From: Armatimonadota bacterium
GTDB lineage: Bacteria; Armatimonadota; HRBIN16
Assembly (NCBI GenBank): GCA_963677485.1
Contig: OY781964.1
Coordinates: forward strand, 608,001 to 672,000
DNA length: 64,000 bases
Reading direction: 5' to 3'
This document shows positions 21,504 to 55,756 of this stretch, piece after piece. The translations under genes were made by a program, and so were the position numbers. Positions within the stretch are counted from its first letter, which is position 1. Every line of letters begins with the position of its first letter. The notes under the pieces are model-generated. The model saw only the letters and a program-made list of their open reading frames with translations, was not told the origin of the DNA and did no database searches.

Positions 21504-21731
21504 CAGTCTATTACCCACAAGTATCGCATAACCAGTAGGTCACCGATTCCGCGACATAAATATCTCGGCGATTGAACACCAAGACTGCTGAAGCAGTCTT
21601 CATTAACGTTATCTTTGTCGGTAAGGAGCTCCACAGCCCGGTTTAGCGGGCTTGTTGATCAGTAGCCGAGACATTTATGTCGCGGCATATGGTCAATACG
21701 ATCCCGATCTGGATTTGTGGGTAATCGGCTG
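21504..21731. mobile_element. 228-bp MITE with 17-bp terminal IRs and 10-bp target-site duplication
   Basis: CAGTCTATTACCCACAA...TTGTGGGTAATCGGCTG (15/17 match), flanked by CCGTAGAAGT at 21494-21503 and 21732-21741. Confidence 0.85.
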
Positions 21732-21785: not shown

Positions 21786-22717
21786 AGGTTACTCGATCGA
21801 CAGCACCATTTTGCCATGCGCCTTGGAGCCCATGATCCGGGTGTGAGCAAGCGCAGCATTCTGCAGCGGGATGCTGATACCCACCTCAGGTCTGATCATC
21901 TTGGTTTCAAGCAAAGAATGAACGGCATCTCGACACTGTTTATACGCATCTGGCGTCATGTTGAAAAGGGCCATACCCAGGATATCCGCCTCTTTGACCA
22001 TGGCTAACCGAGGATTGAAGTCCAGACTACCGCGGTTGCCGATGATGACGATACGTCCGAATTTCGCGATCATTCTGAGGTCGGTCTCCAGATTATCATT
22101 GGCCAGCATCTCGATGATGACATCAGGCCCCTTACCAACAGTGACGGACAGCACCTGATCGATCGTGTCCGCGGTGATGTGGTCAAACACATGTGATGCC
22201 CCAGCCGCTTGCACCAACGACTTTCCCTCAGGCGAACCAGCGGTGCCGATCACAATCGCACCCGTCGCTTTCGCGATCTGAACGGCCAGAAGACCCACAC
22301 CGCCGCTGGCTCCATGCACCAGTACCGTCTCACCTTTTTTCACGCAGCCCCGATGATATACTGCTCGGACGGCAGTCAAAGCTGGGACACCGAGCGACAC
22401 TCCCTGCTCAAAAGTAATATCGTCTGTCAAACGATAGATAGCCTCAGCATCGCAAACCACCTTTTGCGCATAGGTGCCTGTGCATCGCTTCGCGAACAAG
22501 GCGCAGACATACACGCGGTCGCCCACGCTGAACTGCTTTACATCCTCGCCAATGGCATCTACCACCCCGGCTCCATCGCTTCCTGGCGTGTAGGGCAGAT
22601 CGGGTCTGCTGAAAACATATGTGCCGGTCCGGGTGTAGACTTCACTCGGGTTAACCCCCGCCGCGAACAGGCGCACCCGGACTGTATCGCACCCGGTTAC
22701 ACAGACACGGGTTAGTG

Positions 22718-23632
22718 TTAAGCCGCAGTTGTAATGGAGTGCTCTTCTACAAAGCACTGGCGGGTTTCAAGCGGCGTTTTGAATCCCATCTTCTCCAATC
22801 GCCACGAACGATTGTACTCCTGTTTGAATTGTAGCACTGCTTCCCTCACTTCGTCGACATTCTGAAATACATGTGCGTAAATGACCTGTTCCTTTAGTGT
22901 CCGGTTGAATCGCTCAACCACACCATTTGTCTGGGGCTGTTGCACATAGCTGAAGCTGGGTGTGATCCCCAGCCGCTTGATTTCATACTGGAAGTGATCG
23001 GAGCAATTTGCGGATCCGTTGTCGAGTCTCAGAGTAAGCCCGTTGGCGACAGCACGCTCTACGCTGCCATATATAGCCTGAACCCCTTCAAGCACAGGTT
23101 GAACGGCGTTGAACCGGGTACCGAGTTTGCAGACATATATGCCTACGCACTCACCGTTCCAGTGTTCTACCGCACTGAATATCCAGATATTTCCATCATC
23201 AACCGTCCGCACCTGTGTGCCGTCAGTACCCCACATGATATTGGGAGCATCAGTAATGATCGTTCCATTGTGTTGATTAGTATCTGCCTTAGGTCTGCGA
23301 TAAGGCGATAGAAGCTCATTGTTACGCATTAGCCGAAGCACACGGTTCCTGCCCACTCGCAACTTCTGTGCTCCAAAGTGCAGTGACGCGTGGATTTTCT
23401 TATAGCCTTCACCTTGAAATGGAGAGCCATTGATTACAAGCTTGATCGCTTCCAATAGTTCATCATCGGAAACGGAGGTCTTGGGTCCACGCTTTAGCCT
23501 GGGTGTGCTTAAAGCAGGATGAACAACCTCTGTGATTTGCATATAGTAGGTAGAGCGAGGTTGTTCCCAAACTCGGCATACCCTTTCTACACCATAGTGA
23601 GCGCATGTGGCGGGGGAAATGGCAGTGCTCAT
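22718..23632 (-). CDS. IS OrfB DDE transposase (rve)
   Basis: WGTDGT, LRLDNGS, PQTNGVVERFNRTLKEQ; ATGA overlap with orfA stop. Confidence 0.9.
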   Translation of the reverse strand: MSTAISPATCAHYGVERVCRVWEQPRSTYYMQITEVVHPALSTPRLKRGPKTSVSDDELLEAIKLVINGSPFQGEGYKKIHASLHFGAQKLRVGRNRVLRLMRNNELLSPYRRPKADTNQHNGTIITDAPNIMWGTDGTQVRTVDDGNIWIFSAVEHWNGECVGIYVCKLGTRFNAVQPVLEGVQAIYGSVERAVANGLTLRLDNGSANCSDHFQYEIKRLGITPSFSYVQQPQTNGVVERFNRTLKEQVIYAHVFQNVDEVREAVLQFKQEYNRSWRLEKMGFKTPLETRQCFVEEHSITTAA

Positions 23633-24057
23633 TTCCGTAATTTCCCCCGCGTAAAAGGGGCTTCTCTCCGGTGACATCGCTCGTATAGGAGTTCAATCTC
23701 CATAGATTGCTCACCGATACGTCGCTGGGCCTCTTTGAGCTGATGCTCTAAGGGATCTTGAACACGTATCTTCAGAGCGGATTCCATGCCAGCCAGGGCT
23801 CTATCACGCCACTCCTCAATCTGATATATCGGTACACCTATTTGCCTTGATACGATCTCCAAGGATTCGCCGCCAATCAAGCGTTGAACCACCTCAAGTT
23901 TGCGTCGGCAGGACCACCGTCGGCTCTCCGGTAAAAAATTTACGTCCGGGGTGGAACTCGCCCCTTCAGTCGCGCTCCGCGCTCCTTCCGGGGCTCTTTC
24001 CACCCCGGACGTCGGAACAGACATCGGATCCGGATCATTCAAATGATGTGTCTTCAT
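23629..24057 (-). CDS. IS OrfA HTH protein
   Basis: RRWSCRRKLEVVQRLIGGESL...WRDRAL plus leucine-zipper-like tail. Confidence 0.85.
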   Translation of the reverse strand: MKTHHLNDPDPMSVPTSGVERAPEGARSATEGASSTPDVNFLPESRRWSCRRKLEVVQRLIGGESLEIVSRQIGVPIYQIEEWRDRALAGMESALKIRVQDPLEHQLKEAQRRIGEQSMEIELLYERCHRREAPFTRGKLRK

Positions 24058-24413
24058 GAACTCAGTTTACCTTAATATTCTGTCTGTAAAAATTCGGGTA
24101 CCGCTCAAGGCGCACCCGGACCTCGCCTGCGCCAGGCACTGGCTGCTCAACATCGACGTATTGTAATACCTCTGGCCCTCCGAATTCGGATACTCGAATA
24201 GCTTTCATATGGCGCCTCCTGTCCGATCAATAGGTGCGGGCCGATACTTTTCTTGAATATCTGTGCAGCACCATCAACTCAGAGTTTACCTGTAATATAA
24301 TGATCTGGTGTCGGTCTTGCCGATGACTACCCTAATATCTTTCCACGCCACACTTGCGTGATATGCGATGGCATGTTACAATACGATGGTCAACATGTCG
24401 GAGGTAACCGAAA

Positions 24414-30282: not shown

Positions 30283-31122
30283 ATGCACAAGCTTACCGCG
30301 TTCAGCTACTTTGGTGGCAAGAACAGCCAGTTGGGCTTCATACTGCCCAATCTACCCGCCTCTGAATTCTATATCGAGCCGTTCGGTGGATCGGCTGCCG
30401 TGCTCCTTAACCGGGAGCCTGCCAAGAACGAAGTCTACAACGACTTGTATCTCAACTGCGTGAACTTCTTCAGGGTGCTGAGAGACCACCCGGACGAGCT
30501 CATTACCCGATTGAAACTCACCCCAAACAGCAAGCATGAATATGCGATGGCGATCGACATGAACAAGGGACTGAGCCAGGTCGACGATATGATCGAGCGG
30601 GCCAGGATGTGGTTCATGCTTCCGGTGCTTGGCTTCTACGGCCGTCATAAGGAGGCGTCCAACTGGGGCCGTGCTTACTCGTCTGCGAACGGCATGAATG
30701 GCATGTGTTCGAAGTGGATCACAGCAGTGGACCGCCTATACCCGGTGGCAGAGCGCCTGCGCCGGGTCGTGATCGAGTGCGCGGATGCACGTGAAGTGAT
30801 CGAGCGGTGGGACCGTCCGGAGGCGTTGTTCTACCTCGACCCGCCCTATGTGCTGGCGTCAAGATCGAGCAAAACGGCGCAGTATCAGAACGAGATGAAT
30901 GACCGTCAGCATACCGAGCTGCTTGAACTCTGCCAGAGGTGCAAAGGTCGGGTGGCGATCAGCGGATACGATAGCGAGCTGTATACGATGGCACTGTCTG
31001 GCTGGCGGGTGGTGAAAGCACCGCCCAAGGTGAAGCCGTCTAGCTGCGGGCGTAACGGCACTGGTGATACGGCTGTAGAGGTGCTGTGGATGAACTATGA
31101 TGCGGAGGGATGCCGTTTGTGA
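30283..31122 (+). CDS. DNA adenine methyltransferase (D12/Dam class)
   Basis: YFGGK, YIEPFGGSAAV, EVYND, FYLDPPY, EVLWMNY. Confidence 0.92.
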   Translation: MHKLTAFSYFGGKNSQLGFILPNLPASEFYIEPFGGSAAVLLNREPAKNEVYNDLYLNCVNFFRVLRDHPDELITRLKLTPNSKHEYAMAIDMNKGLSQVDDMIERARMWFMLPVLGFYGRHKEASNWGRAYSSANGMNGMCSKWITAVDRLYPVAERLRRVVIECADAREVIERWDRPEALFYLDPPYVLASRSSKTAQYQNEMNDRQHTELLELCQRCKGRVAISGYDSELYTMALSGWRVVKAPPKVKPSSCGRNGTGDTAVEVLWMNYDAEGCRL

Positions 31123-31475
31123 CTAAGAACCCGTGGCGTGACCTGGTAGTGCTTACCGATGTGGAGGTGCTCGCGGAACGGCTGACCACACCCAGCTATT
31201 GGCCGCCAGGCTCTGCTTGCTCTGAGTTAGTCAAGGAGGAGGTGACCGTTGCGCTCAGGGCTGAGGTGATCTCCCCCACCGAATGCATTGTGCTGGTGGC
31301 CAGGTTGTATGACGTGTCGGCTGCTGAGATAGCAGACTTCCTGCATATCTGCACCAGGGCGGTCAACCTGGCCTTTGAACGTGCATGTGGCAAGCTTAAC
31401 GCCTGGTCTGGCTGTGGGGTCACCACCGTGCTTGTAGAGGCCTTCGGACGCTGTGCACTGGACGTGATCGAATGA
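31119..31475 (+). CDS. Sigma-70 region-4-like HTH protein, possible late-gene activator
   Basis: SAAEIADFLHICTRAVNLAFERACGKL; lies just before the packaging genes. Confidence 0.55.
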   Translation: MTKNPWRDLVVLTDVEVLAERLTTPSYWPPGSACSELVKEEVTVALRAEVISPTECIVLVARLYDVSAAEIADFLHICTRAVNLAFERACGKLNAWSGCGVTTVLVEAFGRCALDVIE

Positions 31476-31819: not shown

Positions 31820-32079
31820 AATATCATCGACCAATCTACCGGGCGTGTAGTCGCGTGCGGGAGAGACCGAATTCCAGTTTTTTGGCGATGGGGTTTTTAG
31901 GGGCAAAAACAGGCGGTTTTGTGCTTAAAGATTGCAACTGTGGCGTTGTTTTGTCGTAAATCGATAATGGCTTTTGTGGGTGTGTTTCGACTGGTCACAC
32001 ACCCATAGAGACATGGCATAGAGACTCGGTATAGATACAGCGACGGTAGCGGTATAGACGGAAGTAAAGGGGTGGTGAG

Positions 32080-32529
32080 ATGAGTTCGAATAGGGGCAGA
32101 AAGCCAGCGGCTAGTGTTGAACTAAGCAGCAACGAGAGCCAACAGAAGCCCGCGGAGAACGCAGCAGGTGGCTCCCCTATCAGCCAGCGTTTACCACCCC
32201 CTTCCCATTTAGGGAAGTATGCCAAACAAGAGTGGAGACGCGTTCTGCCAAAACTGGCTGGTGTGGCCACTAATCTTGACTACGCTGCACTCGTTACCTA
32301 CTGCTCTGCTTATGACACGATGATCGAAGCAGACATCACTTTGCAGAGGGATGGGATCATTATAAAAACTCTGAATGGTATTGTAGCTCATCCGGCAACA
32401 CGCATCAAGGCTTCAGCCGCAGACCAAGTTCGGAGGTATCAGACAGAGTTCGGGCTCACACCGCTCGCGCGTTTGCGTGTGCAGCCCGCCCCACCAGAAG
32501 AAGATGACGACCTGGCGAAGATGTGTTGA
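32080..32529 (+). CDS. terS: Terminase small subunit, P27 family
   Basis: GRKP, PPPSHL...AKQEWRR, YCSAY, HPA, EFGLTPLAR. Confidence 0.88.
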   Translation: MSSNRGRKPAASVELSSNESQQKPAENAAGGSPISQRLPPPSHLGKYAKQEWRRVLPKLAGVATNLDYAALVTYCSAYDTMIEADITLQRDGIIIKTLNGIVAHPATRIKASAADQVRRYQTEFGLTPLARLRVQPAPPEEDDDLAKMC

Positions 32530-34271
32530 GGCCGTATCTAGAACTCAAGGAAACCAGCCGGTGGAAGTTCGACGAAGCGAAGGCCGACCGGATCTGCCGA
32601 TGGATGGAAGGGCTTCGGCTGTGGGAGGGCGAATGGGCAGGTCGAAAGCTGAAGTTGATGGACTGGCAACGGCGGACGGTACGGGACATCTTCGGCTGGG
32701 TAGACCGAAATACAGGGATGCGCCGATTCTGGTACGTGATCGTCGTTGTGCCACGCAAGAACGGCAAGACCACATTCAACGCCCCTATCGCCAGCTACAT
32801 GCTGATGGCAGATGATGAGCCTGGCGCGCAGGTGTTTTCGGCGGCTGGCGACAAGGAACAAGCGAGTATCGTGTTCAAGTCAACGGTGAATATGCTTGAA
32901 GCACAACCATCATTATGGAAAATGATCCGGCCAATTGAGAGTGACCGCACGTTGATCTACCCCAAGAAACACAGCAGCTTCATGGCATTGTCAAAGATTG
33001 CGGAGGCTAAGCTGGGTAAAAACCCGCACTTCGTGGTTTATGATGAACTGCTTGTTGCCAAGAACCGCGAGCTGTATACCGCACTGGAAACAGGCATGGC
33101 CGCCAGGCGTCAGCCCATGATGATGATGCTCACGACAGCAGGGTATGATCGGGCCACGCTGTGCTGGGAGCAGTATGACTATGGAAGGAAGGTACTGACT
33201 GGGGCGATCACGAACGAACGGTGGTATCCCGTGATCTACGAAGCGGAGGAGGATGCAGACTGGACATCTGAAGAGGTTTGGGCGGCGGCCAACCCGAGTT
33301 GGGGGGTGACGATTAACCGCGACTACATGGAACAGGCGTGTCAGAAGGCCATCGATACCCCCAGTAACCAGGCTGATTTCAAGAGATACCACCTCAATAT
33401 CTGGACGAACCAGGTGAACAGATGGCTGGACATGAGCCGTTGGAAGGCGTGCTGCAAAGAACCAATTGAGCCGCTTGATGGCCGGGTATGCTACGGCGGG
33501 CTCGACCTTTCGAGCACGATGGACTTGAGTTCGCTGTGCCTGGTATTTCCGAATACCGATGGTTCGTACGACGTGATCTGGCGGACCTGGACCCCGGAGG
33601 CCACGATGGTCGAACGCTCGCGGAGGGATGATGTGGACTATGCCGAGTGGGCGCGTGCGGGATGGCTTATTCCTACACCGGGCGAGCGTATAGACTACCG
33701 TTATATCCGTGAGGAGATCAAGGATATCGCTGCAAGATACAAGCTTGCGGAACTGGCATATGACCCGTGGGGAGCGCTGCATCTGGCGACGGAGCTTGAG
33801 GAGGAGGACAAGATCACGATGGTTCAGTGCAGGCAGGGATACATCACACTGTCGGCACCATCCAAGGAACTGGAAGCGGCGGTGGTTCTTGGGGCGGCCA
33901 CACCGGAGCAGGTTGAGGAATACCGCATGAAGTTCGAGGAAGATCAGGATCGCCGGGTGCTGGAAGCCCAGTTAGCTCTTGAGCAGATGAAGGAAGACGG
34001 GGTCAATACTAGTGCGATCAAGCCGTATGTGCGGCAGGAATGGAAATACAATGCGCTGCGTCACAACGGCGATCCTGTGGCGGGCTGGTGTGCAAACAAT
34101 GTGGCTGTCATCAAGGATGACGCGGACAACATCAAGCCGACGAAGTCGAAGTCGAACGGCAGGATAGACTGCATCGCCGCGTTGGTGACGGCACTCAGCA
34201 GGGCGATGCTTGGCGGAGGGCAACCGAGACGCAGCGTGTATGAAGACCGCGCGCCGTATGTTCCGGATTGA
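32523..34271 (+). CDS. terL: Terminase large subunit
   Basis: VPRKNGKT, YDELL, TTAG, ANPSWG, YGGLDLSST, YDPW, RIDCIAAL. Confidence 0.95.
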   Translation: MLRPYLELKETSRWKFDEAKADRICRWMEGLRLWEGEWAGRKLKLMDWQRRTVRDIFGWVDRNTGMRRFWYVIVVVPRKNGKTTFNAPIASYMLMADDEPGAQVFSAAGDKEQASIVFKSTVNMLEAQPSLWKMIRPIESDRTLIYPKKHSSFMALSKIAEAKLGKNPHFVVYDELLVAKNRELYTALETGMAARRQPMMMMLTTAGYDRATLCWEQYDYGRKVLTGAITNERWYPVIYEAEEDADWTSEEVWAAANPSWGVTINRDYMEQACQKAIDTPSNQADFKRYHLNIWTNQVNRWLDMSRWKACCKEPIEPLDGRVCYGGLDLSSTMDLSSLCLVFPNTDGSYDVIWRTWTPEATMVERSRRDDVDYAEWARAGWLIPTPGERIDYRYIREEIKDIAARYKLAELAYDPWGALHLATELEEEDKITMVQCRQGYITLSAPSKELEAAVVLGAATPEQVEEYRMKFEEDQDRRVLEAQLALEQMKEDGVNTSAIKPYVRQEWKYNALRHNGDPVAGWCANNVAVIKDDADNIKPTKSKSNGRIDCIAALVTALSRAMLGGGQPRRSVYEDRAPYVPD

Positions 34272-34307
34272 TCCGATTTGTTAGGAGTAGGTAGTAATAT
34301 TCCCGCA

Positions 34308-34336
34308 TTGACAGATATAGATATTGGAGGTAGATT
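34308..34336 (+). promoter_or_regulatory. Sigma-70 promoter of cargo gene
   Basis: TTGACA-17 bp-TAGATT. Confidence 0.7.
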
Positions 34337-34375
34337 ACTGATGTCACCACTATGATGCTCATGGAGGGCATACTA

Positions 34376-35314
34376 ATGCGGAATAAATTGTGTACCGTTG
34401 TATATGGGCTCTTGTTATGCAGTAGCTTAGCAATCGCAGACGATGTGTCGAAAACAACCATCGTTACCAAGGTGAACGCCAAGGATGGCGCTGAGATGGT
34501 ACTCATTCCAGCTGGTGAATTCCAGATGGGGATGTCCGAGGATGAAGTTGCAGCGTGGTTAAGAGACAATCCAGATTCAAACATCAAACGTACCGCGTTT
34601 GCACCTCAGATGCCAAAGCATAAAGTCAATGTAGATAGTTTTTATATGTATAGAACTGAGGTTACTGTCGCGCAGTATCGGAAGTTTTGTGAAGCCACGA
34701 ATCGGGCTATGCCGAAAGATCCGGATGATTGGAAATGGAAAGATGCCGGTCTGAATGTTCCTATCTCCAATGTTCGATGGGATGACGCGAAAGCCTATGC
34801 GGACTGGGCTGGTGTCATGCTTCCTACAGAGGCGCAATGGGAAAGAGCTGCACGTGGCGGGGATGATCGGCAATATTCATGGGGAAATACATGGCCACCA
34901 CCAGCCAAAGCGGGTAATCTGAGAGACCTTTCTCTACGCCACGTGATACCGAATTTAGAAGGTATTGTCACGGAAAAATATGATGATCGTTATGCGTATT
35001 TAGCACCTGTAGGGTCATTCAACGCGAACCCGTATGGCTTGTATGATATGACAGGCAATGTGTTGGAGTGGTGTGCAGACTGGTATAGTCCGAACTACTA
35101 CAGTAAGTCACCGACACGAAACCCGACTGGTCCCTCAAAACCCGATGACGATCGTAACTGCGTAATACGTGGAGGTAGCTATTACACAGTCCAATTCGGT
35201 ATCCGTGTATATGACAGAGACTTTGTTCCCAAAGATGGTGTAGGGTGGTCTCCAGCAGCACACGAAGATTTAGGATTCCGATGTGTGATGCCGGTGCCCC
35301 CCAAAAAGCTGTAA
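34376..35314 (+). CDS. Secreted FGE-sulfatase/SUMF1 (CLec-fold) domain protein
   Basis: Signal peptide; MVLIPAGEFQMG, TEVTVAQY, LPTEAQWERAARGG, GLYDMTGNVLEW, RGGS, LGFRC. Confidence 0.92.
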   Translation: MRNKLCTVVYGLLLCSSLAIADDVSKTTIVTKVNAKDGAEMVLIPAGEFQMGMSEDEVAAWLRDNPDSNIKRTAFAPQMPKHKVNVDSFYMYRTEVTVAQYRKFCEATNRAMPKDPDDWKWKDAGLNVPISNVRWDDAKAYADWAGVMLPTEAQWERAARGGDDRQYSWGNTWPPPAKAGNLRDLSLRHVIPNLEGIVTEKYDDRYAYLAPVGSFNANPYGLYDMTGNVLEWCADWYSPNYYSKSPTRNPTGPSKPDDDRNCVIRGGSYYTVQFGIRVYDRDFVPKDGVGWSPAAHEDLGFRCVMPVPPKKL

Positions 35315-35358
35315 CAGCCCTCGTACTCCGACTGACATCCTCGGTCCACTGGAACTGA

Positions 35359-35389
35359 ACACAGCCTACTCCCTGCGGGTAGGCTGTTC
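35359..35389 (+). terminator. Probable terminator of cargo gene
   Basis: ACAGCCTAC-tccctgcgg-GTAGGCTGTT. Confidence 0.55.
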
Positions 35390-35449
35390 ATCATTGGCTA
35401 GCGTTGAATTTACCAGGCTCATTCAAGTTACCAATCGAACCTTACGTCC

Positions 35450-35605
35450 GACCAGAACGACAACATCATGTATACGAAGGGCAAGAGCAACGGTCGCATC
35501 GACCTGATTTCGTCGCTTGTGATGGCGTTATGGCGGGCGATTGCGCACCGCGAGCCGAAGAAGCGCAGCGTGTATGAGACGCGTGCGCCGTATGTGCCGG
35601 ATTGA
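35450..35605 (+). pseudogene. Orphan diverged copy of terL 3' end
   Basis: Translates DQNDNIMYTKGKSNGRIDLISSLVMALWRAIAHREPKKRSVYETRAPYVPD* versus TerL DDADNIKPTKSKSNGRIDCIAALVTALSRAMLGGGQPRRSVYEDRAPYVPD*. Confidence 0.88.
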
Positions 35606-35608
35606 GGT

Positions 35609-35833
35609 CTACGGGTCGTAGCCCTTATTTATATGTTTCATGATGAAGGTGTAGAGGCCCTTTCCGGATACCGCAAGAGCTTTCATGAATGCAACATTAC
35701 TCTGCCCTACTGACTCGTTCGTATATGTAAACCGGTGGCCATCGACAAACAAAACCTCGATACAGTCGGGGGTTATACCATACCACTCCACACGCGAAGT
35801 GCCCCGGCGGTTCGCGTATTTTTTCATATCCAT
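35609..35833 (-). CDS. Small KTSC-like protein
   Basis: Y.N..G.S.V..Y...IEVLFVDGHRFTY...MKALAVSGKGL pattern; RBS GGAG. Confidence 0.6.
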   Translation of the reverse strand: MDMKKYANRRGTSRVEWYGITPDCIEVLFVDGHRFTYTNESVGQSNVAFMKALAVSGKGLYTFIMKHINKGYDP

Positions 35834-36144
35834 ATCTATCTCCGAAAAAGGAATATACTCTACTTGACTTATGGTTAATTACCTATGGTTGGGAATCCTT
35901 CTTTTCGCTAGTAATCAAGCGATAGACTATGGTGTGTTGATATCTGTGAGAAAAGAAGGTATAAATAGGACAGTCTGATTACAATTGTATGTAATCGCTC
36001 TATTTGCGACAAGGAATTAGCGATGGTTTCCGAACATCATCTGTATCGGGAACCCGAAGTAGTGACATAGTAGCTGGTGATCGCCATAGGGACAATATAC
36101 CCTACCAATCGCTCGGTCTAAAAGCTGTTATCGCAAGAAACGAG

Positions 36145-39060
36145 ATGTTACTGATGAACGAAAACCCGAGTTCCGGTATACCCTCACAGCAAGCAGCCAC
36201 CTATCAATTAGGCGATCTAGTTCCTGCAGTTTTAAGCATGTTGAAGGAGTTGTTGAAAACATCAGAAATACAGCAACTCTTTGATGCTTTCTACAATCTA
36301 GTTGATATCCCTATTGCAGTCCTCGATATACATGGTGATGTTTTACTCTCATCAAAATGGAACCGCATCTGCACACAGTTCCACCGTACCCATCCTGTCA
36401 CTTGTGCGCATTGCGTAGAAAGTGACACAATGCTCGCTCAGCAGATTGATATTGGGCAGCCATACAAAATCTACCAATGTCTAAACGGTATGACAGAATG
36501 CTCGGCTCCAATCATTCTAGAAGGCCAGCACATCGCAAATCTGTTCGCAGGTCAGTTTTTGGTTAACAAACCAGACGAAATCATGTTCCACGATCAAGCC
36601 CTGCAGTATGGTTTTGATGTTGACGACTATCTCACCGCACTTCGCGAAGTACCGATAGTCGATGAAACCAGGATGCCAAAAATCATCGATTTATTAATCA
36701 AGATGACCCATGTGATTGCCCGTCTCAGTGTTGACCGTATACGTACCATGGAGGACCATAACAGGCAGGCACTTATTCTTGAAACTTTACCACTATCAGT
36801 ATTCTGGAAAGATGCTGATGGCACATATCTTGGTTGTAACACCCGATTTGCTACTGCTGTGGGTTTATCAACGCCCGATGAGATTGCGGGTAAGTCCGAT
36901 TATGATTTTGTTTCTGTATCGAGGGCTGATGGATTTCGGAAAGAAGACCAAGACATCATTGCTTCACATCAGCCAAAGCGTACGGTCCAGTCAGTCACGA
37001 AAAAAGATGGCTCACACATCACGGTCCAGATTGTTAAGACACCCATAGTCGGTGCTTTTGGATCATCAACGGGTGTGCTTGGGATATATGAGGACATCAC
37101 TAAACGTAAGGAAGCTGAAGACGCGTTACGTCAGAGTTATTCGCATTACCAGGCTGTGTTCAATAACGCGATTGAAGGTATATATGAAGCCACTATACAA
37201 GGCCAAGCATTGTCTGCAAACCCAGCGTTCGTACAGATGCTGGGGTATGATTCGGTAGAGGATGCACTCAGCAAGCTAGATGATGTTGCTTTGACGCTGT
37301 GGGCGGACCCTAACGAACGCGCGGTTGTGCTAAAACTGGTAGACATGAATGGATGGGTACGTGGATATGAATGTCAGTATCGGCGTAAGGACGGACGGCT
37401 GATATATATAGCACTCAATGCTACCGTCGTCAGAGTATCAGATGGTGAGGACTATTACCTTGCTTCTATCCAGGACATCACCGAAAGGAAGGAAGCTGAA
37501 GCCAAGTTGCGTCACAGCTATGTTCATTACCGGACGGTGTTCGAAAACGCGATTGAGGGTATCTATGAAGCTACATTACATGGTAAGGCATTATCAGCCA
37601 ACCCGGCATTTGTCGAAATGCTTGGGTATGATTCAGAAGAGGAAGTAGTCAGCATCCTTACAGACATCCCCCATCAGCTATGGGCCGATCCTGACGAACG
37701 CAGCAATGTTCTACACATGATCGATTTAAACGGATGTGTTAGGGGATACGAATGTGAATTCAAGCGTAGAGATGGAAGTATCATCCATGTGATGCTCAAT
37801 GCTACAGTCGTCCGAAGACCCGACCACAATGACTATTATTTAGCCTCTGTCCAAGATATCAGTGAAAAAAAACAAGCCGAGGTTAAGCGGCTTCAACTTG
37901 AAGACCAACTGCGATCGTCTCAGAAGTTGGAAGCCATTGGTAGACTCGCTGGAGGTGTCGCACATGACTTCAACAACCTTCTGTCAGTAATCTTAGGATA
38001 TACAGGCCTTACGATCGCCATGGTGGATGATGACGATCCGCTTAAAGAGAATATACAGGAAATCCAAAACGCCGCACAACACGCTGCGGCACTAACCCGT
38101 CAGCTTCTGGCCTTCGGCCGTAAACAGGTGCTGCAACCGGTGGTATTCGATCTGAATCAAATCATACATGGCATAAAGACTATATTCGATCGAACCATAG
38201 GTGAAACCATCGACCAGAAACTATTGTTATCGCCTCAAATCGGGTTGATCAAAGCTGACCCAAGCCAAATCGAGCAGGTGTTGATGAACTTGGTAGTCAA
38301 TGCTCGTGACGCCATGCCAGATGGTGGACAGATCACCATAGAGACATCGAAAATGGCGGTTACAGGTGACGAGATTGTGGTTGACACGGTACTCAGTCCT
38401 GGTATGTATGTAAAACTAGCCGTCAGTGACACGGGTATGGGCATGGACGCAAATACCAAAGCGAGGATATTCGATCCGTTTTATACAACCAAGGAATTTG
38501 GCAAGGGAACTGGCCTTGGCCTGTCCACAGTCTACGGTATCGTTAAACAAAGTGGAGGTGATATCTGGGTGGATTCCGAACCCGGGTATGGCTCCACTTT
38601 TAACGTCATCTTTCCATGTTTCAATGCAGTGAAGCCCGCAAGCATGAACCAGCCTCAGATATCTTTGATGGATACTACTGGGACTGAGACCATCATGGTG
38701 GTTGACAACGAAGAGTCACTACGTTTAGTCGCTACTAAAGTTTTGACTGATGCAGGATACACCGTGCTTTGTGCTGTAGGTGGTAACGAGGCGATAGATA
38801 TGGCAAGAAAGCATTCTGGCGATATCGATCTGCTTCTAGCCGATGTCATAATGCCTGGAATGGACGGCAGAGCCACCGCCAATGAGCTCATTCGAATTTG
38901 CCCATCAATAAAGGTGGTATTTATGTCAGGCCACACCCGCGATGAGATTGAACACCATGGTGTCATTTATGGAGATACGAACTATTTGGCCAAGCCTTTT
39001 TCAGCTGATGAACTGAAGGTCAAAATCCGTGAGATACTATCATTCCGACATCCTAGTTAA
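36145..39060 (+). CDS. Hybrid sensor histidine kinase PocR-PAS-PAS-PAS-HisKA-HATPase-REC
   Basis: PocR cysteine pattern (ICTQFHR...C..SD, YQCLNGM...APII...GQF), PAS/PAC repeats, GGVAHDFNNLL, NLVVNARDAM, DTGMGM, GTGLGL, DVIMPGMDG. Confidence 0.92.
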   Translation: MLLMNENPSSGIPSQQAATYQLGDLVPAVLSMLKELLKTSEIQQLFDAFYNLVDIPIAVLDIHGDVLLSSKWNRICTQFHRTHPVTCAHCVESDTMLAQQIDIGQPYKIYQCLNGMTECSAPIILEGQHIANLFAGQFLVNKPDEIMFHDQALQYGFDVDDYLTALREVPIVDETRMPKIIDLLIKMTHVIARLSVDRIRTMEDHNRQALILETLPLSVFWKDADGTYLGCNTRFATAVGLSTPDEIAGKSDYDFVSVSRADGFRKEDQDIIASHQPKRTVQSVTKKDGSHITVQIVKTPIVGAFGSSTGVLGIYEDITKRKEAEDALRQSYSHYQAVFNNAIEGIYEATIQGQALSANPAFVQMLGYDSVEDALSKLDDVALTLWADPNERAVVLKLVDMNGWVRGYECQYRRKDGRLIYIALNATVVRVSDGEDYYLASIQDITERKEAEAKLRHSYVHYRTVFENAIEGIYEATLHGKALSANPAFVEMLGYDSEEEVVSILTDIPHQLWADPDERSNVLHMIDLNGCVRGYECEFKRRDGSIIHVMLNATVVRRPDHNDYYLASVQDISEKKQAEVKRLQLEDQLRSSQKLEAIGRLAGGVAHDFNNLLSVILGYTGLTIAMVDDDDPLKENIQEIQNAAQHAAALTRQLLAFGRKQVLQPVVFDLNQIIHGIKTIFDRTIGETIDQKLLLSPQIGLIKADPSQIEQVLMNLVVNARDAMPDGGQITIETSKMAVTGDEIVVDTVLSPGMYVKLAVSDTGMGMDANTKARIFDPFYTTKEFGKGTGLGLSTVYGIVKQSGGDIWVDSEPGYGSTFNVIFPCFNAVKPASMNQPQISLMDTTGTETIMVVDNEESLRLVATKVLTDAGYTVLCAVGGNEAIDMARKHSGDIDLLLADVIMPGMDGRATANELIRICPSIKVVFMSGHTRDEIEHHGVIYGDTNYLAKPFSADELKVKIREILSFRHPS

Positions 39061-39095
39061 CGCATTCTGACCTATATAGCCATCCTCGTTTGACG

Positions 39096-39142
39096 AAATG
39101 GGAAGTGGGGGCTGTCAACTGACAGCTCCCACTTCCCATTTT
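39096..39142 (+). terminator. Strong hairpin terminator before portal
   Basis: AAATGGGAAGTGGGGGCTGTCA-ac-TGACAGCTCCCACTTCCCATTTT. Confidence 0.8.
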
Positions 39143-39173
39143 AGATTGTTTGCCCCCTAGTATATGGAGGGCT

Positions 39174-40373
39174 GTGAATTTGAGATGGCCGTGGCAGCGC
39201 AAGGAAAAGAGAATTGCTGATCCGTGGGTGATCGGCGGGGTCGACAAGTATGGTCGGCCGACGAATGCGGCGATACAGATCGCTGCATTGCATCGGTGCG
39301 TGGCGGTGATCAGCGAGAGCATCGCGACGCTGCCGATCCATGTATACCAGATGACCAAAGATGGCAGAGTGCCGAAGCCAAGCCACCCCCTTCAATCCCT
39401 CCTGTATTCTACGCCGAACCGGCGGATGATCCCGTGCGTATTCTGGCAGTCGGTGGTCGAGAACACCGTGCTGCTGGGCAACGGGTATGTGGAGATCGCA
39501 CGCGATGAGAACACCCGGCCGGTGGAGTTGTGGCCGTTGTGCCCTGCCGAGGTTTACGCCGACGCCGAGTTGGACGGCACCCCGAACTACACCGTGACGC
39601 GGGCGGGCACGGCGCATAAACTGGCAGACAGCGATGTGATGCACATCCCCGGCCAGGGCTATGACGGTCTGCGCGGGAGCTCGCTGCTGGAGAGGTTCCG
39701 GACGGTGTTCGGGATCACCATCTCGGCGGACACACTGGCTGAGAGTTACTTTCGGCAGGGGGCCAAGCCGTCTGGGGTGTTGAGCACTCCCGACGAGATG
39801 AGTGAAGACGCCGAGAAGAACCTGATCGACGCGTGGCGACGGCTGTATGAGGGGGCCTCGAACGCTGGGCGGATCATGCTGCTTCAGCAGGGGGTGAAGT
39901 TCGATGCGCTGTCAATCAGCTTCGCGGACAGCGAGTTTCTGAAGAACCGGGAGTTTCAAGTGGCGGAGGTCTGCCGCGTGTTCGGTGTTCCGATGCATAT
40001 GGTCATGGCACCCGGAGGGACATATGCCAGCGACGAGGCGCGGGCTAGGGAGTTCTACTCGTTGACGTTGCAGCCCTGGATTGTGCGGCTGGAGCAATCG
40101 ATCAGCCGGAGCCTGTTGACGCCATGGGAGCGTGGGCGGATATTCGTGAAGTTTGAAGTCGACGGCCTTTTACGAGGCGACTTGGACAAGCGATATGCAT
40201 CATACGCCATCGCCAAGCAGAACGGCTGGCTATGTGTGAATGAGATACGACGGTATGAGGATTTGCCCCCGATAGAGGGTGGCGATGAATACTACGTGCC
40301 GCTCAATATGGTGCCGATCGGCCAGGCTGCGGATCAGGTGGGCAACGGCGAGCCGGGGAGTGTGAGGAAGTGA
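39174..40373 (+). CDS. Portal protein, HK97 family
   Basis: ISESIATLPIHVY, PN, LLGNGY, DVMHI, EVCRVFGVP, NEIRRYEDLPP. Confidence 0.95.
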   Translation: MNLRWPWQRKEKRIADPWVIGGVDKYGRPTNAAIQIAALHRCVAVISESIATLPIHVYQMTKDGRVPKPSHPLQSLLYSTPNRRMIPCVFWQSVVENTVLLGNGYVEIARDENTRPVELWPLCPAEVYADAELDGTPNYTVTRAGTAHKLADSDVMHIPGQGYDGLRGSSLLERFRTVFGITISADTLAESYFRQGAKPSGVLSTPDEMSEDAEKNLIDAWRRLYEGASNAGRIMLLQQGVKFDALSISFADSEFLKNREFQVAEVCRVFGVPMHMVMAPGGTYASDEARAREFYSLTLQPWIVRLEQSISRSLLTPWERGRIFVKFEVDGLLRGDLDKRYASYAIAKQNGWLCVNEIRRYEDLPPIEGGDEYYVPLNMVPIGQAADQVGNGEPGSVRK

Positions 40374-40978
40374 GCGACAACCTACAGTTTCGGTGGATGC
40401 AGCACAACGCGGAGCTGCGAATGTCTGGCGAGGAGAGCCGCACTATCAACGGGTATGCGGCGGTGTTCAACTCGGAGACGATGATTTTCAGAGACACCTA
40501 TGAGGTGATCCGTCCGGAGGCGTTCCGGACCACCAACATGGATAAAGTGGTGTGCCTGTTCAACCACAGCTATGACCAGATGGTGGCGAGTGTGGCGGGC
40601 GGCACGCTGCGGCTGTCGACAGATGACCACGGTCTGCGGTTTGAGGCCGATGTGGCCCGCACGATGATAGGCGACCAGGTGATTGAGCTGGTGCGACGGG
40701 GTGACCTGCAGGGCTGCAGCTTCGCGTTCTGGGTGACGAAGGATGCCTGGACGGACCGCGGGGACGGGGTGATGCTGCGGGAGCTGCTAGATATCCGGGA
40801 GATCGATGACGTTGGTCCGGTGGTGCGACCGGCGTATGTAGCCACAAGTGTGGCTATGAGGAGCTATTACGAAGCTCGGTGCAAGCGACCAGAGGGTAAA
40901 CCTGCTGAGGAAGTGAATGCGCAGCCTACCCTGAACAACGACTGGATGATGCTGAAGAAGCTAATGGAGGGACGATGA
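40370..40978 (+). CDS. Prohead protease, HK97 family
   Basis: GYAAVFN, LFNH, DDHGL, GCSFAF, PAY. Confidence 0.93.
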   Translation: MSDNLQFRWMQHNAELRMSGEESRTINGYAAVFNSETMIFRDTYEVIRPEAFRTTNMDKVVCLFNHSYDQMVASVAGGTLRLSTDDHGLRFEADVARTMIGDQVIELVRRGDLQGCSFAFWVTKDAWTDRGDGVMLRELLDIREIDDVGPVVRPAYVATSVAMRSYYEARCKRPEGKPAEEVNAQPTLNNDWMMLKKLMEGR

Positions 40979-42165
40979 ACCGAAAGAGATTGATTGACCA
41001 GCGCAACCAACTGTTGGCGGAGTTGGAGCAGATGCTGAACACCGCCGAGGGTGAGAACCGCGGGTTTACCGAAGAAGAGCGAAGCCGCCGTGACCAGATC
41101 ATGGCGCAGGCTAAGGCACTGGGTGACCAGATCGGGACGATCGACGAGATGAACGAGATGCGCGCCTCGGAGCACGTGAGCATCAGTCGGCTAGCCGTTG
41201 GGGCCGCACCGCCTGAGCATAGGGTGATGGTTCCGACCGAGCTGCACGCAAGCCAGGAGTACCGGGACGCGTTCGCGCAGTTCCTGGTGCGGGGAGATGA
41301 CCGTGAGCTGCGTGTTCTTGGTGCAGTGACCGGCACAGAGGGCGGTTACCTCATCCCGACGGTGACCTACAACGAGATCTGGGACCTAACCAAGTCGCTG
41401 GCCCCGGTGGTTGGCCGAGTGAAGCGAATGCCCTCGACCGACTGGGCGGTGAATGTGCCGACCATGACCAGCAAGGGCGGCTTCCAGTACGTGAAGCAGA
41501 ACGAGACCACGACTCCGAAGGACCCGGCGACTGGTCAGTTGCCGCTGGTCACACAGACCGCGCAGTGGCTTATCGGCGTGGATAAGAACATGAGCAGCTC
41601 TACCGTGAGCGTAGAAGGGTGGCTTCGCGGACTGTTTGCCGAGGGTCTAGCCGAGTTCCTGGAGGGTGAGATCATCAACGGTGCCGGTGGAGCCGATGCG
41701 CTGCAGGGCATTTTGAACGCCGGGGTTCTGAAGAAGACCACCGCCAGTGCGACCGCGATCACCCGCAAGGAGATCGAGGCGTTGTATTGGGGTATGCCGG
41801 AGTTCTACCTCGGCCGGGCTGAGTGGATCATGGGTGGATCGACCGCGCAGATGATTGCCGACGTGAGTAATGCGGTGACCGGTGACACACTGTGGGCGCC
41901 TTCCCTGGTGGACGGCTACCAGTGGCAGCTTATCGGTCGGCCCGTGAACCTGTCGAGTGGAGCGCCGGTGTGGACGGCGAACACGAAGGTGATGGCGTTT
42001 GTGAACCTGCTGAGCTACGTGCTGAAGGACGGCGGTCTGGAGATTGAGTTGAGCGACCACTTCCAGTTTGACAAGCGGCAGCGCACCTTCCGTGCGGTGT
42101 GGAGCGGTGACGGGAAGCTGATGAAGGACTCGCACGCCCAGGTTCTGAAGGTGAAAGCGGCCTAG
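40975..42165 (+). CDS. Major capsid protein, HK97 family
   Basis: Coiled-coil delta domain, GGYLIP, INGAG...GIL, LIGRPV. Confidence 0.92.
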   Translation: MNRKRLIDQRNQLLAELEQMLNTAEGENRGFTEEERSRRDQIMAQAKALGDQIGTIDEMNEMRASEHVSISRLAVGAAPPEHRVMVPTELHASQEYRDAFAQFLVRGDDRELRVLGAVTGTEGGYLIPTVTYNEIWDLTKSLAPVVGRVKRMPSTDWAVNVPTMTSKGGFQYVKQNETTTPKDPATGQLPLVTQTAQWLIGVDKNMSSSTVSVEGWLRGLFAEGLAEFLEGEIINGAGGADALQGILNAGVLKKTTASATAITRKEIEALYWGMPEFYLGRAEWIMGGSTAQMIADVSNAVTGDTLWAPSLVDGYQWQLIGRPVNLSSGAPVWTANTKVMAFVNLLSYVLKDGGLEIELSDHFQFDKRQRTFRAVWSGDGKLMKDSHAQVLKVKAA

Positions 42166-42204
42166 GAGGAGGCTCAGCCTCATTGAGGCTTAGCCTCGCT
42201 TTCG

Positions 42205-42227
42205 GGGGGCCAAAACGGCCCCCTTTT
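42205..42227 (+). terminator. Terminator after capsid gene
   Basis: GGGGGCC-aaaac-GGCCCCCTTTT. Confidence 0.7.
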
Positions 42228-52896: not shown

Positions 52897-55721
52897 TAAA
52901 GATCGATGAACAGACCGTCACCTGGACCATTCAGTTCTACCACGCGGCGAAGATCGAGGTCTACAGGGATAACTTCATGCCGTTCCTGCACTCCCGCATC
53001 ACCGCCAATGGGTCGCTGTCGGCCACCATTCCGCTTTCTGTGGGTGCTTTTTCGGTTGGTGCTATCACGGCGGGAGCATACCCGGATGTGAGCTGGCCAC
53101 ATACTGACCAGTTGCCATTCGACTACACCCTGACCTACCCGAGCGGACAACCAGCACCGGCGGAGTGGGCCACGATGAGCATCCGGTTCGGGCTCCCGGA
53201 GGGTGTCCATACCCAGCCCCACGCAGGCTCGCTGACGTTCAGGGCGCCCTGTGATGTAATGGCGGACATGCTGACCATGGGCGAGGGTGACGGTGCGGGT
53301 TTTGTGGGCTTCCATCACCGGGGCTTTCAGAGGGACACCCCAGACCGCACCAAGTGCAGGCTGTGGCTTCGTCTGCGGGAACTGGCCACCTGGACGCTTG
53401 TCACCAACATCGGCACCTATACCGGCACCTGCGGATCGGTGGGAGCGGATCTACCCAACGAGCTGCACGCCAGTGCGACGGTGACCGCGATCGCAGGCAC
53501 ACAGACCGCCGAGGGGCGGGTGAATATCATCTGCTCGAACGGCAGTTACCGCTGCGACGGTGCATCACCTACCTGGAGTTATAGCGGCGGAACCTGCAGT
53601 GGGGAGCTGGGTGACGGCCACCTTGTGGGCAGAGCCACACCGACCAGCGGTGGCGCAAGTATGACCACAGCCATGGCGGGCGGGTGGCACCTGAGCCGTG
53701 AGGCGTCCATCACCTGTGCGGTGCTCAACCCGTCCGGAGGCGGGATACCTTCGGAGCTTGCGGTCAGTAGACACGGCAACGACACCGCCCTACCCATCGT
53801 CACAGCCACTGACGGCTACTATGAGGAGGGCATCACGCAGCGGATGTGGTTCTGGAGTTTCAACGCTAGCAGCGGGACGGGTAGTTTTTCGGACGGCGGC
53901 ACCTGGTCGAACTGGGGAGATCTGTCGGTCGGGCTGAACCCGGTATGGAGCCTGGCTAACGAATACCACGATCTACCGGAGGATTGGAGCGACTACCTAC
54001 CTTACCGCACCTGGCAGGATAACCGGATGCTGATGCACCTGTGGGCGGTCGATGGCCCGACGCTTTCGCACGCCGCCATGAGCTCGCTTGGCTTAGGCTG
54101 GGCGGAGGGCGGCTATACTCTGGCATCTGGTGCCTGGGTCTCTGGGGGTGCGCTCACCTGCGGGCGCTGGACGGTCATACATGGCAGCCTTGATCCGGAC
54201 GGGTTGGTGGCTCGCATCACGCCGGACACCGGGACGGTGGCCATGACCTTGCGCCGCACGCTGGAGTGGGACACCGAGCAGCTTGGCGAGAACCCAAGCC
54301 GTCCCCCACGGCCCACATTCGCAGGATACCGCTATCTGCGGATATGCTTAAGGCGTGACCGCACACCCCAGCCGCTCGATACAGTAACGGTGCGGATCAA
54401 GCAGGATAACCTGGCCGCACTCTACCCGGACCCCACCACGATGACATGGGAGAACCCGAGCCTGGCGGTGAAGACATGGACCACGAAGGTGAAGGCGGAT
54501 GGCACGATAGAGATAGACCTGGCCAGGCCGGACATCACCGGGCTTGTGTCAGAAGGAGGGAACCCGCCACCGACCGGCAACCATGGCGAGCTCGCGCGGC
54601 CAAACACCCTGAGCCGGTGGCCACAGCCGGTTTTGGACGGCACGCTCAGCGGTGTAACCCTTCCGGAGTGGTTGGAGGTTGAGGTACCGACCACCGACGG
54701 TGACGACTGGATACTGGGCAGCGTGGAGCTGTTTCGAAAGTCGGAGCCGCTAGTGTGGCTGCTCCCCCCACTCAACCAGTGGATTCGCGAGGAGCGGTAT
54801 GACCTGCTCAACGAAGAGGACACCACCCAGCGTAAGCACTGGCGAAGGCGTCTGCTGCTTGGTGTGTGCGATGGTCTGCCGAACTTGGAGGGGTTTGATA
54901 TAGTCCGCACCTCGTCGCACCTGGTCAGCGAGGAGCTCGGCGAATTTGATATCTTCGCCTGGGAGCTTAAAAGCGTGGCCGGTGTGGCGGTGCAGGTGGT
55001 CGAGGAGCATGAGTTTAACCTCTGGCAGTTTGGTGTTCCGGACGTTCCAGTGGGGGTTCTGCGACGCTGGCCAGGTTGGAGCGTGAGCATCCCGACCCCA
55101 GCGGCGGGCAGCGTATATGAGTGGGTGTTGGCTGGCTCCGGCTGCCGGTGGGGTGGCCACGGCGTGATCTGGACCGCCAGCCCACAGGTGCAGTCATGTT
55201 TGGGCCTTGGCGGTACGAAGGTGCAGTCACTGGTGGACGCGATAGACTGGTTCGCAGGGGTGCATGACCCGTTCAACCTGGGTGATGACGACCTGGTGCT
55301 GCGTGTGGCCACGGTGCTGCATGGCAGTGCTATCGGGGCAGGGCTTGCGAATGACACGGTGGAGTTGAAGGCGGGTGAGACGCTGGTGCAGAGTGTGGCC
55401 ACCGGCACCAACGGCGCCCTGCTGGCCATGAACCCGGGCGGTAAGCACTACCTGGACCACTCGCTGTTACGTGACGGCCAGGAGCTGGTGAGTTGGACCG
55501 GTGAGGGCTGTAGTTGGGATTTCCGGCCGTCGCTTACAGCTTCGCAGGTCTACCCGTGTCTTGAGGCTCCGCTCTGGTGGCACAGCCGCGGGCTGCATGT
55601 GGCGCACTGGGCGAAGTGGTTCGGTCCGCTGGTGCTGCGGCGCAACAAGCAGGGTAAGCTGCTCTGCCAGAAGCGCAGCCTACCCGGCGGGGGTAGGTGC
55701 GTCAGGTGCCGTCAGGGGTAG
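52893..55721 (+). CDS. Large tail-tip/minor tail protein, no recognised family
   Basis: 942 aa, Trp/Gly/Thr-rich, last gene of the late operon. Confidence 0.55.
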   Translation: MIKIDEQTVTWTIQFYHAAKIEVYRDNFMPFLHSRITANGSLSATIPLSVGAFSVGAITAGAYPDVSWPHTDQLPFDYTLTYPSGQPAPAEWATMSIRFGLPEGVHTQPHAGSLTFRAPCDVMADMLTMGEGDGAGFVGFHHRGFQRDTPDRTKCRLWLRLRELATWTLVTNIGTYTGTCGSVGADLPNELHASATVTAIAGTQTAEGRVNIICSNGSYRCDGASPTWSYSGGTCSGELGDGHLVGRATPTSGGASMTTAMAGGWHLSREASITCAVLNPSGGGIPSELAVSRHGNDTALPIVTATDGYYEEGITQRMWFWSFNASSGTGSFSDGGTWSNWGDLSVGLNPVWSLANEYHDLPEDWSDYLPYRTWQDNRMLMHLWAVDGPTLSHAAMSSLGLGWAEGGYTLASGAWVSGGALTCGRWTVIHGSLDPDGLVARITPDTGTVAMTLRRTLEWDTEQLGENPSRPPRPTFAGYRYLRICLRRDRTPQPLDTVTVRIKQDNLAALYPDPTTMTWENPSLAVKTWTTKVKADGTIEIDLARPDITGLVSEGGNPPPTGNHGELARPNTLSRWPQPVLDGTLSGVTLPEWLEVEVPTTDGDDWILGSVELFRKSEPLVWLLPPLNQWIREERYDLLNEEDTTQRKHWRRRLLLGVCDGLPNLEGFDIVRTSSHLVSEELGEFDIFAWELKSVAGVAVQVVEEHEFNLWQFGVPDVPVGVLRRWPGWSVSIPTPAAGSVYEWVLAGSGCRWGGHGVIWTASPQVQSCLGLGGTKVQSLVDAIDWFAGVHDPFNLGDDDLVLRVATVLHGSAIGAGLANDTVELKAGETLVQSVATGTNGALLAMNPGGKHYLDHSLLRDGQELVSWTGEGCSWDFRPSLTASQVYPCLEAPLWWHSRGLHVAHWAKWFGPLVLRRNKQGKLLCQKRSLPGGGRCVRCRQG

Positions 55722-55750
55722 TTGACAAGTAGAACTATATAGGCTATAGT
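55722..55750 (+). promoter_or_regulatory. Near-consensus sigma-70 promoter with no downstream ORF
   Basis: TTGACA-17 bp-TATAGT. Confidence 0.7.
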
Positions 55751-55756
55751 TTATTC

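Follow-up and report, generated by a model that had tools for sequence, protein, structure and literature searches.

Hotspots for morons and for defence genes are well known in enterobacterial phages, where they usually lie near tail-fibre, lysis, cos or replication genes. The moron concept itself reportedly goes back to Juhala, Hendrix and colleagues in 2000. Morons have been reviewed as 'The moron comes of age' (PMC3594210). A sensory cargo is found in phiCDHM1, a Clostridioides difficile phage whose agr3 locus encodes the histidine kinase AgrC; the report on it describes a phage without a response regulator and cargo with a guanine-plus-cytosine (GC) content below that of the phage modules (PMC3901668). 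Here we describe a 4.9-kb block at positions 34272-39173 of a 64,000-nt window from an Armatimonadota bacterium (contig OY781964.1). The window, meaning the whole stretch of DNA that was analysed, covers 608001-672000 of a single-contig genome of 5.22 Mb with 54.4% GC, and all positions below refer to it unless another locus is named. The block lies between the large terminase gene (terL) and the portal gene of a temperate HK97-type prophage, called P1 here, and it is likely that it consists of two independently acquired morons in a hypervariable terL-portal site specific to this phage lineage.

Genes in the window were assigned from Pfam domain matches and the coordinates of open reading frames (ORFs). 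As a preliminary description of this DNA had stated, terL and portal are separated by a gene for a protein of the formylglycine-generating enzyme (FGE) fold, a small gene on the opposite strand and a gene for a PocR-PAS hybrid histidine kinase (Table 1). The block is not one single insertion, because it is split by a relic of the terL 3' end. The resulting order is terL, slot 1 with the FGE-fold gene (34272-35443), the terL relic, the small antisense gene, slot 2 with the kinase gene (35834-39128) and portal.

The same genome carries two sibling prophages, P2 (L014) and P3 (L015), whose TerL proteins are 90% and 79% identical to that of P1. The cargo region of P2 (L014:11096-13857) follows the P1 plan with other contents: terL is followed by a gene for a 322-amino-acid (aa) TIR-like protein, a 194-nt terL relic, a 74-aa gene, a 365-aa pentapeptide-repeat and ion-channel gene on the opposite strand, and portal. 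P1 and P2 are 99.3% identical upstream of the module formed by terS and terL, 85% over terS-terL, 79% over the relic plus small gene and 96.4% from 39129 (portal) onward, with both slots unrelated. Two of the three siblings therefore carry different cargo in the same two positions, as expected from the earlier proposal of a hotspot. In P3, terL and portal lie ~145 nt apart, and the spacer (L015:5662-5805) holds only a hairpin like a repetitive extragenic palindrome (REP), long and imperfect (-69.7 kcal/mol, z-score -4.9). The 34-nt core of this spacer is found at > 80 sites across the genome (85 blast rows, its own among them). The spacer is therefore a host REP-like repeat that settled inside the prophage packaging operon, and all three siblings thus carry foreign DNA at the terL-portal junction.

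Relatives beyond the host genome are distant. No TerL match outside the host's own genome was found at E 1e-30 among 18 genomes of its order, and a sample of 401 genomes of the phylum gave two other matches with at most 42% identity. A TerL alignment scan of genome contigs returned 26 pattern matches, none of them a relative; metagenome contigs yielded six TerL loci, of which the long matches are 34-38% identical and a short segment reaches at most 43%, and no close relative, and 18 viral contigs encode TerL proteins 27-31% identical. The distance from the terL stop to the estimated portal start could be measured at 21 of 26 loci, the five without a portal match being dropped. It is < 120 nt at 17 of the 21, 266-276 nt at three and 795 nt at one, several of these loci being near-duplicates, so that they do not amount to 21 independent cases. 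The relative with the 795-nt gap holds two small ORFs for membrane-like proteins there (L039:11701-12497). Collecting prophages by their TerL and portal homologues, a check that had been proposed earlier, thus gave near-adjacent genes in most relatives and different cargo at the same two positions in P1 and P2. The statement that the two genes are normally adjacent holds for P3 as well as for most distant relatives; adjacency is the rule, the hotspot being specific to this phage lineage.

The contents of the P2 slots bear on a different reading, in which the site is an anti-phage or superinfection-exclusion island and the kinase, the FGE-fold protein or both belong to a defence system not yet described, much as at the hotspots of P2-like phages and P4 satellites. 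Known defence hotspots are recognised by cargo that varies while the core genes around it are conserved (PMC9122126). The 322-aa protein of prophage P2 matches a PADLOC TIR effector (E 1.4e-9) and weakly a Pfam CAP12/Pycsar TIR family (E 0.067), the pentapeptide/ion-channel protein could serve as a membrane effector, and both genes are possible anti-phage candidates. In the P1 block, PADLOC matches neither the FGE-fold protein nor the small gene and gives only a marginal match in the receiver region of the kinase (PD-T4-6, E 6.5e-4), and no nuclease, nucleoside triphosphatase or other effector lies beside the kinase gene. To our knowledge, PocR-PAS hybrid kinases are not part of any known defence system. 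We hold a defence island to be unlikely, and continue with two independently acquired morons as the preferred reading.

Base composition sets the cargo apart. The block had been described as AT-richer than the flanking head genes, and indeed its GC content is 46.7% against 55.9% for terS-terL and 60.7% for portal-capsid, which places it in the bottom 1.2% of 10,431 genome segments of the same size. Locally, GC is 42-49% over 34.1-39.2 kb and 54-62% alongside. At third codon positions (GC3) it is 0.44 in the FGE-fold gene and 0.46 in the kinase gene, compared with 0.69-0.80 for terL, portal and capsid; the small antisense gene is intermediate (0.60). When P1 and P2 are taken together, GC3 of all four cargo genes is 0.43-0.50 against 0.65-0.80 for the phage genes. 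The cargo genes are foreign by base composition.

Table 1. Features of the terL-portal region of prophage P1 and public contigs that cover it (positions in the window).
Feature	Position	Strand	Basis or remark
terS (small terminase)	32080-32529	+	Pfam Terminase_4, E 1.1e-21
terL (large terminase), intact, 582 aa	32523-34271	+	Pfam TerL_ATPase and TerL_nuclease
Sigma-70-like promoter match before slot-1 gene	34308-34336	+	TTGACA, 17 nt, TAGATT; 10/12; suggestive only
Slot-1 cargo, predicted secreted FGE-sulfatase/SUMF1-fold protein	34376-35314 (ORF opens at 34352)	+	PF03781, E 9.5e-52
Hairpin 3' of FGE-fold gene, weak terminator candidate	35356-35390	+	-18.7 kcal/mol, z -2.6
terL 3' relic, last ~53 codons and stop	35444-35605	+	Alignment and translation; direct repeat with terL
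74-aa small gene, KTSC-like fold, scaffold and not cargo	35609-35833	-	Copy in sibling P2; phrog_17428
Promoter-like site upstream of kinase gene	35937-35965	+	TTGATA, 17 nt, TATAAA; found by eye
Slot-2 cargo, predicted soluble hybrid histidine kinase, 971 aa	36145-39060	+	Pfam domains
Kinase: PocR domain	~36247-36729	+	Pfam
Kinase: three PAS domains	~36778-37860	+	Pfam
Kinase: HisKA	~37939-38127	+	Pfam
Kinase: HATPase_c	~38257-38616	+	Pfam
Kinase: receiver	~38692-39027	+	Pfam
Strong intrinsic-terminator-like hairpin	39095-39142	+	22-bp stem, then T-rich tail; -41.2 kcal/mol, z -7.4
Portal	39180-40373 (ORF 39150-40373)	+	Pfam Phage_portal, E 1.8e-94
Prohead protease	40370-40978	+	Pfam Peptidase_S78
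Major capsid protein	40975-42165	+	Pfam Phage_capsid
Logan contig span, terL to relic	34125-35595/35652		0 differences
Logan contig span, small gene to portal	35631-39173		0 differences
Logan contig span, kinase to capsid	38685-42220		0 differences; X4 only
X6 contig, FGE-fold gene	34303-35020		28 differences
X6 contig, small gene and first half of kinase	35572-37576		81 differences
X6 contig, middle of kinase	37568-38559		84 differences

The terL relics suggest how the cargo arrived. The P1 relic (162 nt) is 60% identical to TerL residues 530-582 (E 5.7e-11), has stops upstream and lacks a start, and its final 48 nt are 97.9% identical to the end of the P2 terL. The P2 relic is 93% identical to the terL end of P1 itself, as expected if a P1-like terL was replaced. 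For P2, the most economical history is that an incoming terS-terL-plus-TIR module overwrote such a terL, with its right joint 194 nt short of the resident gene's end. More generally, a terS-terL-plus-passenger module from a related phage would have replaced most of the resident terL, and the relic would be the joint of illegitimate recombination. A stretch of 500 nt (31883-32382) from the gene for the HNH endonuclease to the main part of terS shows no likeness between P1 and P2, directly after sequence that is 99% identical; this is the left edge of the exchanged module. The P1 relic is much more diverged than the P2 relic, which points to an older or more distant event, and the 97.9% match of its last 48 nt to the P2 terL end hints at a later exchange between the repeats. 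The lineage-specific, two-slot moron hotspot is, in our judgement, real and built by illegitimate recombination, with a readable record of cargo arrival: a terL arrives with its passenger and takes the place of the resident terL, of which only the last 160-190 nt survive. Insertion mediated by a transposon or an integrase was rejected for the block, which has neither a transposase or integrase gene nor relevant terminal inverted repeats.

A further step would be to regard the terL 3' repeats and the conserved antisense 74-aa gene as a dedicated cassette-exchange platform, at which co-resident prophages swap cargo between terL-end repeats, with the kinase as a phage-borne metabolite sensor that alters the behaviour of the lysogen or the prophage. 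The likeness of the P2 relic to the P1 terL end (93%) and of the end of the P1 relic to the P2 terL end (98%) hints at such exchange, and in a relative from a digester metagenome the FGE cassette appears to follow the terL end of the other variant. We judge this extended reading distinctly unlikely.

The small antisense gene has a copy at the same place in P2 (81% identical), with a ratio of non-synonymous to synonymous substitution rates (dN/dS) of 0.31, and its protein matches phrog_17428 (E 1.5e-14) and parts of two PHROGs. Because it is common to the sibling prophage and has a PHROG match, it belongs to the phage scaffold and not to the foreign cargo. The preliminary description had spoken of three non-phage genes; this stands for the two large cargo genes, which are foreign in composition, but not for the small one. 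The protein has no Pfam match even at E 10 and belongs to a wide family of ~75 aa without a Pfam entry (434 representatives at E ≤ 0.001); the Protein Atlas places it only in unnamed 75-aa clusters. A single-sequence model (predicted local distance difference test score 77.6) has the KTSC protein 7x8c as its top match among 48,161 chains, with a Z of 5.5, which is below the safe level of the tool, and a root-mean-square deviation of 2.7 over 60 residues; the next match has a Z of 4.3. Foldseek gives template-modelling scores of 0.55-0.57 at E 0.43. One of 50 aligned relatives matches Pfam KTSC (PF13619, E 3.2e-4), and the profile reaches E 0.61 against the 7x8c chain. The earlier label of KTSC-like is compatible with the top fold match of the model, and sequence support for it is slight: it is a reasonable fold label rather than a family assignment.

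The slot-1 protein probably starts at ATG 34376, behind GGAGGG, and its translated N-terminus resembles a signal peptide, with positive charge, a hydrophobic core and AIA/DD. It matches the solved FGEs 6muj, 2q17 and 1y1e at E 5e-29 and thus has the same FGE-sulfatase/SUMF1 fold domain as formylglycine-generating enzymes. In alignments, two cysteines that follow the RGGS motif in 6muj, 2q17 and 5nxl, which we take to be the catalytic pair, have no counterpart in the slot-1 protein. For this reason the protein was not filed as a formylglycine-generating enzyme. By the missing cysteine pair and the predicted secretion signal it differs from these enzymes and resembles the many family members that are not FGEs; further down the same match list are PvdO, PorK/GldK and kinase-linked domains. 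The host genome holds ~10 paralogues, 45-58% identical over parts.

The slot-2 gene encodes the ~970-aa kinase with a PocR domain, three PAS domains, a histidine-kinase module and a receiver that had been described before. Its ORF (36004-39060) has 1018 codons, and the likely start at ATG 36145 gives 971 aa; a public copy of the protein (P0002) starts three codons later and has 968 aa. Pfam matches are strong for PocR (E 3.3e-45), HATPase_c (E 9.5e-23) and the receiver (Response_reg, E 3.1e-18), with HisKA at E 1.7e-7, and the translation contains all the motifs that we take to be the H-box histidine, the N, G1, F and G2 boxes and the receiver aspartate. Since it has no hydrophobic N-terminal segment, the kinase looks like a soluble cytoplasmic sensor. 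A 183-nt direct repeat within the gene (37091-37273 and 37472-37654, 77% identity) is a tandem duplication of a PAS unit. Among 5.8 billion proteins, the only near-full-length match (P0014) is 41% identical, and the most similar partial match (P0278) is 53% identical but covers a third of the query; the best paralogues in the host genome are 41-45% identical over the C-terminal half. The kinase is thus without a close homologue, identity being ≤ 45% for any match that spans the greater part of it. Its PHROG match is phrog_5982 (E 4.5e-127), a group of phage-borne hybrid kinases annotated as of unknown function. Among 50,697 phage records no comparable kinase was found: the 107 partial matches are all < 60% identical, and < 33% among the matches listed, and several of the records look like bacterial contigs. 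Viral contigs contained no relative of the kinase.

These data also bear on whether the kinase serves the phage, as a sensor of a host metabolic or redox signal that biases prophage maintenance against induction. It is intact, it has been kept with the phage in a second environment, the digester, it lacks a close cellular homologue and has a PHROG match, and phages that sense host signals exist, as the phiCDHM1 agr genes indicate (PMC3901668). On the other hand, the window contains no response regulator, Hpt protein or other kinase (none of 68 genome matches to the kinase is another kinase or receiver within the 64 kb), the S24 repressor points to ordinary SOS-type control, and a similar kinase is absent from the phage records (best < 33%, partial) and viral contigs. 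The near-identical sibling P2 (flanks 96-99%) has an unrelated gene in place of the kinase, so that the phage does not need it. We therefore regard a phage-serving sensor as very unlikely. The preliminary description had considered an undescribed prophage sensing module: with an unrelated pentapeptide/ion-channel gene in the P2 slot, no other kinase or receiver in the window, and a phage histidine kinase without a response regulator already described, phiCDHM1 AgrC (PMC3901668), the sensing module is not supported, and the moron hotspot is. As one of the two independent morons, the kinase would be interchangeable cargo without a phage-encoded partner. It would sense a small intracellular ligand and pass phosphate to phosphorelay proteins of the host, which would amount to lysogenic conversion and not to phage control; PocR domains are described as binding small hydrocarbon derivatives (PMC13602510).

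Transcription signals were located by scanning 32-41 kb, where the TTGACA/TAGATT element before the FGE-fold gene is the best promoter-like site (10/12). The scan rule demands a T at the last position of the second hexamer, and the TTGATA/TATAAA element upstream of the kinase gene was therefore not flagged. The FGE-fold gene had been credited with its own promoter and terminator; the promoter-like site is present, but the 'terminator' is a modest hairpin without a clear T-run, which the terminator scan did not flag. The strong terminator at the end of the kinase gene was confirmed, and the descending arm of its hairpin overlaps the start of the homology to P2 (39129). Portal probably starts at TTG 39180, 8 nt past GGAGGG (39166-39171), an arrangement kept in all three siblings. 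A conserved promoter directly before portal was not evident, the three having only the ribosome-binding region in common. Because a hairpin of -41 kcal/mol sits 38 nt before the portal start, it is a fair inference that late transcription would need read-through or re-initiation to reach portal. This is also how morons are classically arranged.

Another reading is that the prophage is decaying and non-functional, and that the block is a single insertion that disrupted it or an artefact of assembling three similar prophages. The strong terminator and antisense gene between terL and portal and the relic pseudogene speak for this, and three similar prophages in one genome invite assembly errors. 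However, short-read Logan contigs of three runs from two studies (X1, X3 and X4, which may include the source strain) show 0 differences and bridge every junction, from terL to slot 1, from the relic to the small gene, from there to the kinase gene and from the kinase gene to portal. Contig joints that skip from 34225 to 35560 and from 35834 to 39129 are those expected from P2 sequence laid on P1. An X1 contig over portal-protease (39144-41174) has 37 differences, in contrast to none in the X1 cargo contigs; it could stem from a strain in which the same cargo sits beside a head region that has recombined, or from mixing with a sibling. The same cargo occurs at ~92-96% identity in an anaerobic-digester metagenome (X6), where the small protein, on a contig of 2,005 nt (P0124), is 99% identical; a search for shorter kinase fragments did not recover the digester copy of the kinase. 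With the same architecture in sibling P2 and the same cargo in the metagenomic relative, neither a one-off insertion nor a misassembly, the two outcomes that had been named as refuting the hotspot, was borne out.

Nor does the prophage appear to be in decay. All 11 shared genes that were compared between P1 and P2, from terL and portal onward, are open, without stop codons, and their dN/dS ratios are 0.03-0.30 (portal 0.089, capsid 0.043, terL 0.085, protease 0.30 with 6 changes only, and seven others 0.03-0.17). P1 also has an integrase gene (62199-63374), an excisionase-like gene, an S24/HTH repressor, replication O/P-like genes, a Dam methylase and an HNH endonuclease. The intact genes argue against a dead prophage, without proving inducibility. 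We consider the disruptive-insertion or misassembly reading largely refuted and extremely improbable.

As two independent morons, the cargo genes would each have a promoter that is active in the lysogen, their products, a secreted FGE-fold protein and a kinase, would act on host physiology, and late transcription would pass the terminator by antitermination or leakage. Several points weigh against this picture. Promoter-like sites are not in excess in 32-41 kb (10 compared with a shuffle mean of 9.0), the promoter rules of this host may differ, and expression of the cargo in the lysogen is something we infer. The strong hairpin before portal leaves portal expression unexplained, as the scan of the early genes revealed none recognisable as an antiterminator; a 121-aa ORF (31110-31475) has no match. 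Purifying selection between P1 and P2 could predate the insertions. The slot-1 gene of P2 looks like a defence effector (TIR), and the site may collect defence genes rather than genes of benefit to the host. Finally, close comparison is limited to three siblings and one metagenomic relative, the nearest other TerL being 42% identical, and the hotspot rests on few related genomes.

In the full-text library that was searched, no description of a terL-portal accessory hotspot or of a phage PocR hybrid kinase was found. The hotspot described here lies where terL and portal meet, in prophages of a lineage that has been little studied, and the finding is, as it stands, solid but incremental comparative genomics. 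The kinase is a candidate phage-delivered addition to the host signalling network; if its expression and function were demonstrated, lysogenic conversion would extend to sensory rewiring.

Outside the block, P1 and P2 are also unlike each other over a second stretch, which follows the tail genes (55720-60580) and probably represents a further variable region. Besides three uncharacterised genes on the minus strand, it contains those for a bPH/SHOCT protein, a GNAT acetyltransferase and the S24/HTH repressor. A 1.43-kb element (22682-24107) ~4 kb from the left end of the prophage has at least five further copies in the genome at 99.6-100% identity, in addition to two partial copies, and is probably an active insertion sequence. 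Short dispersed repeats of ~180-230 nt (8184-8367, 10521-10701, 21504-21731 and 4159-4392), with dozens of genome copies at 80-96% identity, resemble REPs or miniature inverted-repeat transposable elements.

Compared with known systems, the block resembles the morons of lambdoid and HK97-type phages in that it sits between late genes that are adjacent in relatives, differs from them in base composition and has promoter-like and terminator-like signals, with lysogen expression presumed. It is unlike those morons in its site, terL-portal in the packaging/head operon, in its two slots parted by a terL relic and an antisense gene, and in its unusually large cargo (a 2.9-kb kinase gene), and its expression is predicted from sequence. 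With the defence hotspots of P2-like phages and P4 satellites (PMC9122126) it has in common the conserved core flanks and a cargo that differs in close relatives, sibling P2 having a TIR-like protein. The old/tin hotspot of phage P2 lies between gpA and portal (bioRxiv 10.1101/2024.10.15.618418), compared with terL-portal here. Unlike that of the P2 and P4 hotspots, the cargo in the window has no match to known defence systems beyond one marginal match, and three siblings stand here against hundreds of P2 genomes.

The kinase has its own counterparts. Its N-terminal PocR domain is like that of the AraC-type PocR and MtaR sensors (PMC13602510), but its output is a histidine-kinase/receiver module and not a DNA-binding domain. 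The closest published analogue of the kinase as a whole is phiCDHM1 AgrC, likewise a histidine kinase on a temperate phage that has no phage response regulator and lies in cargo of lower GC (PMC3901668). AgrC comes with the signal-production genes agrB and agrD and has close host homologues. In contrast, the P1 kinase is a predicted soluble PocR-PAS hybrid with its own receiver that stands alone, without a close homologue, in the packaging operon.

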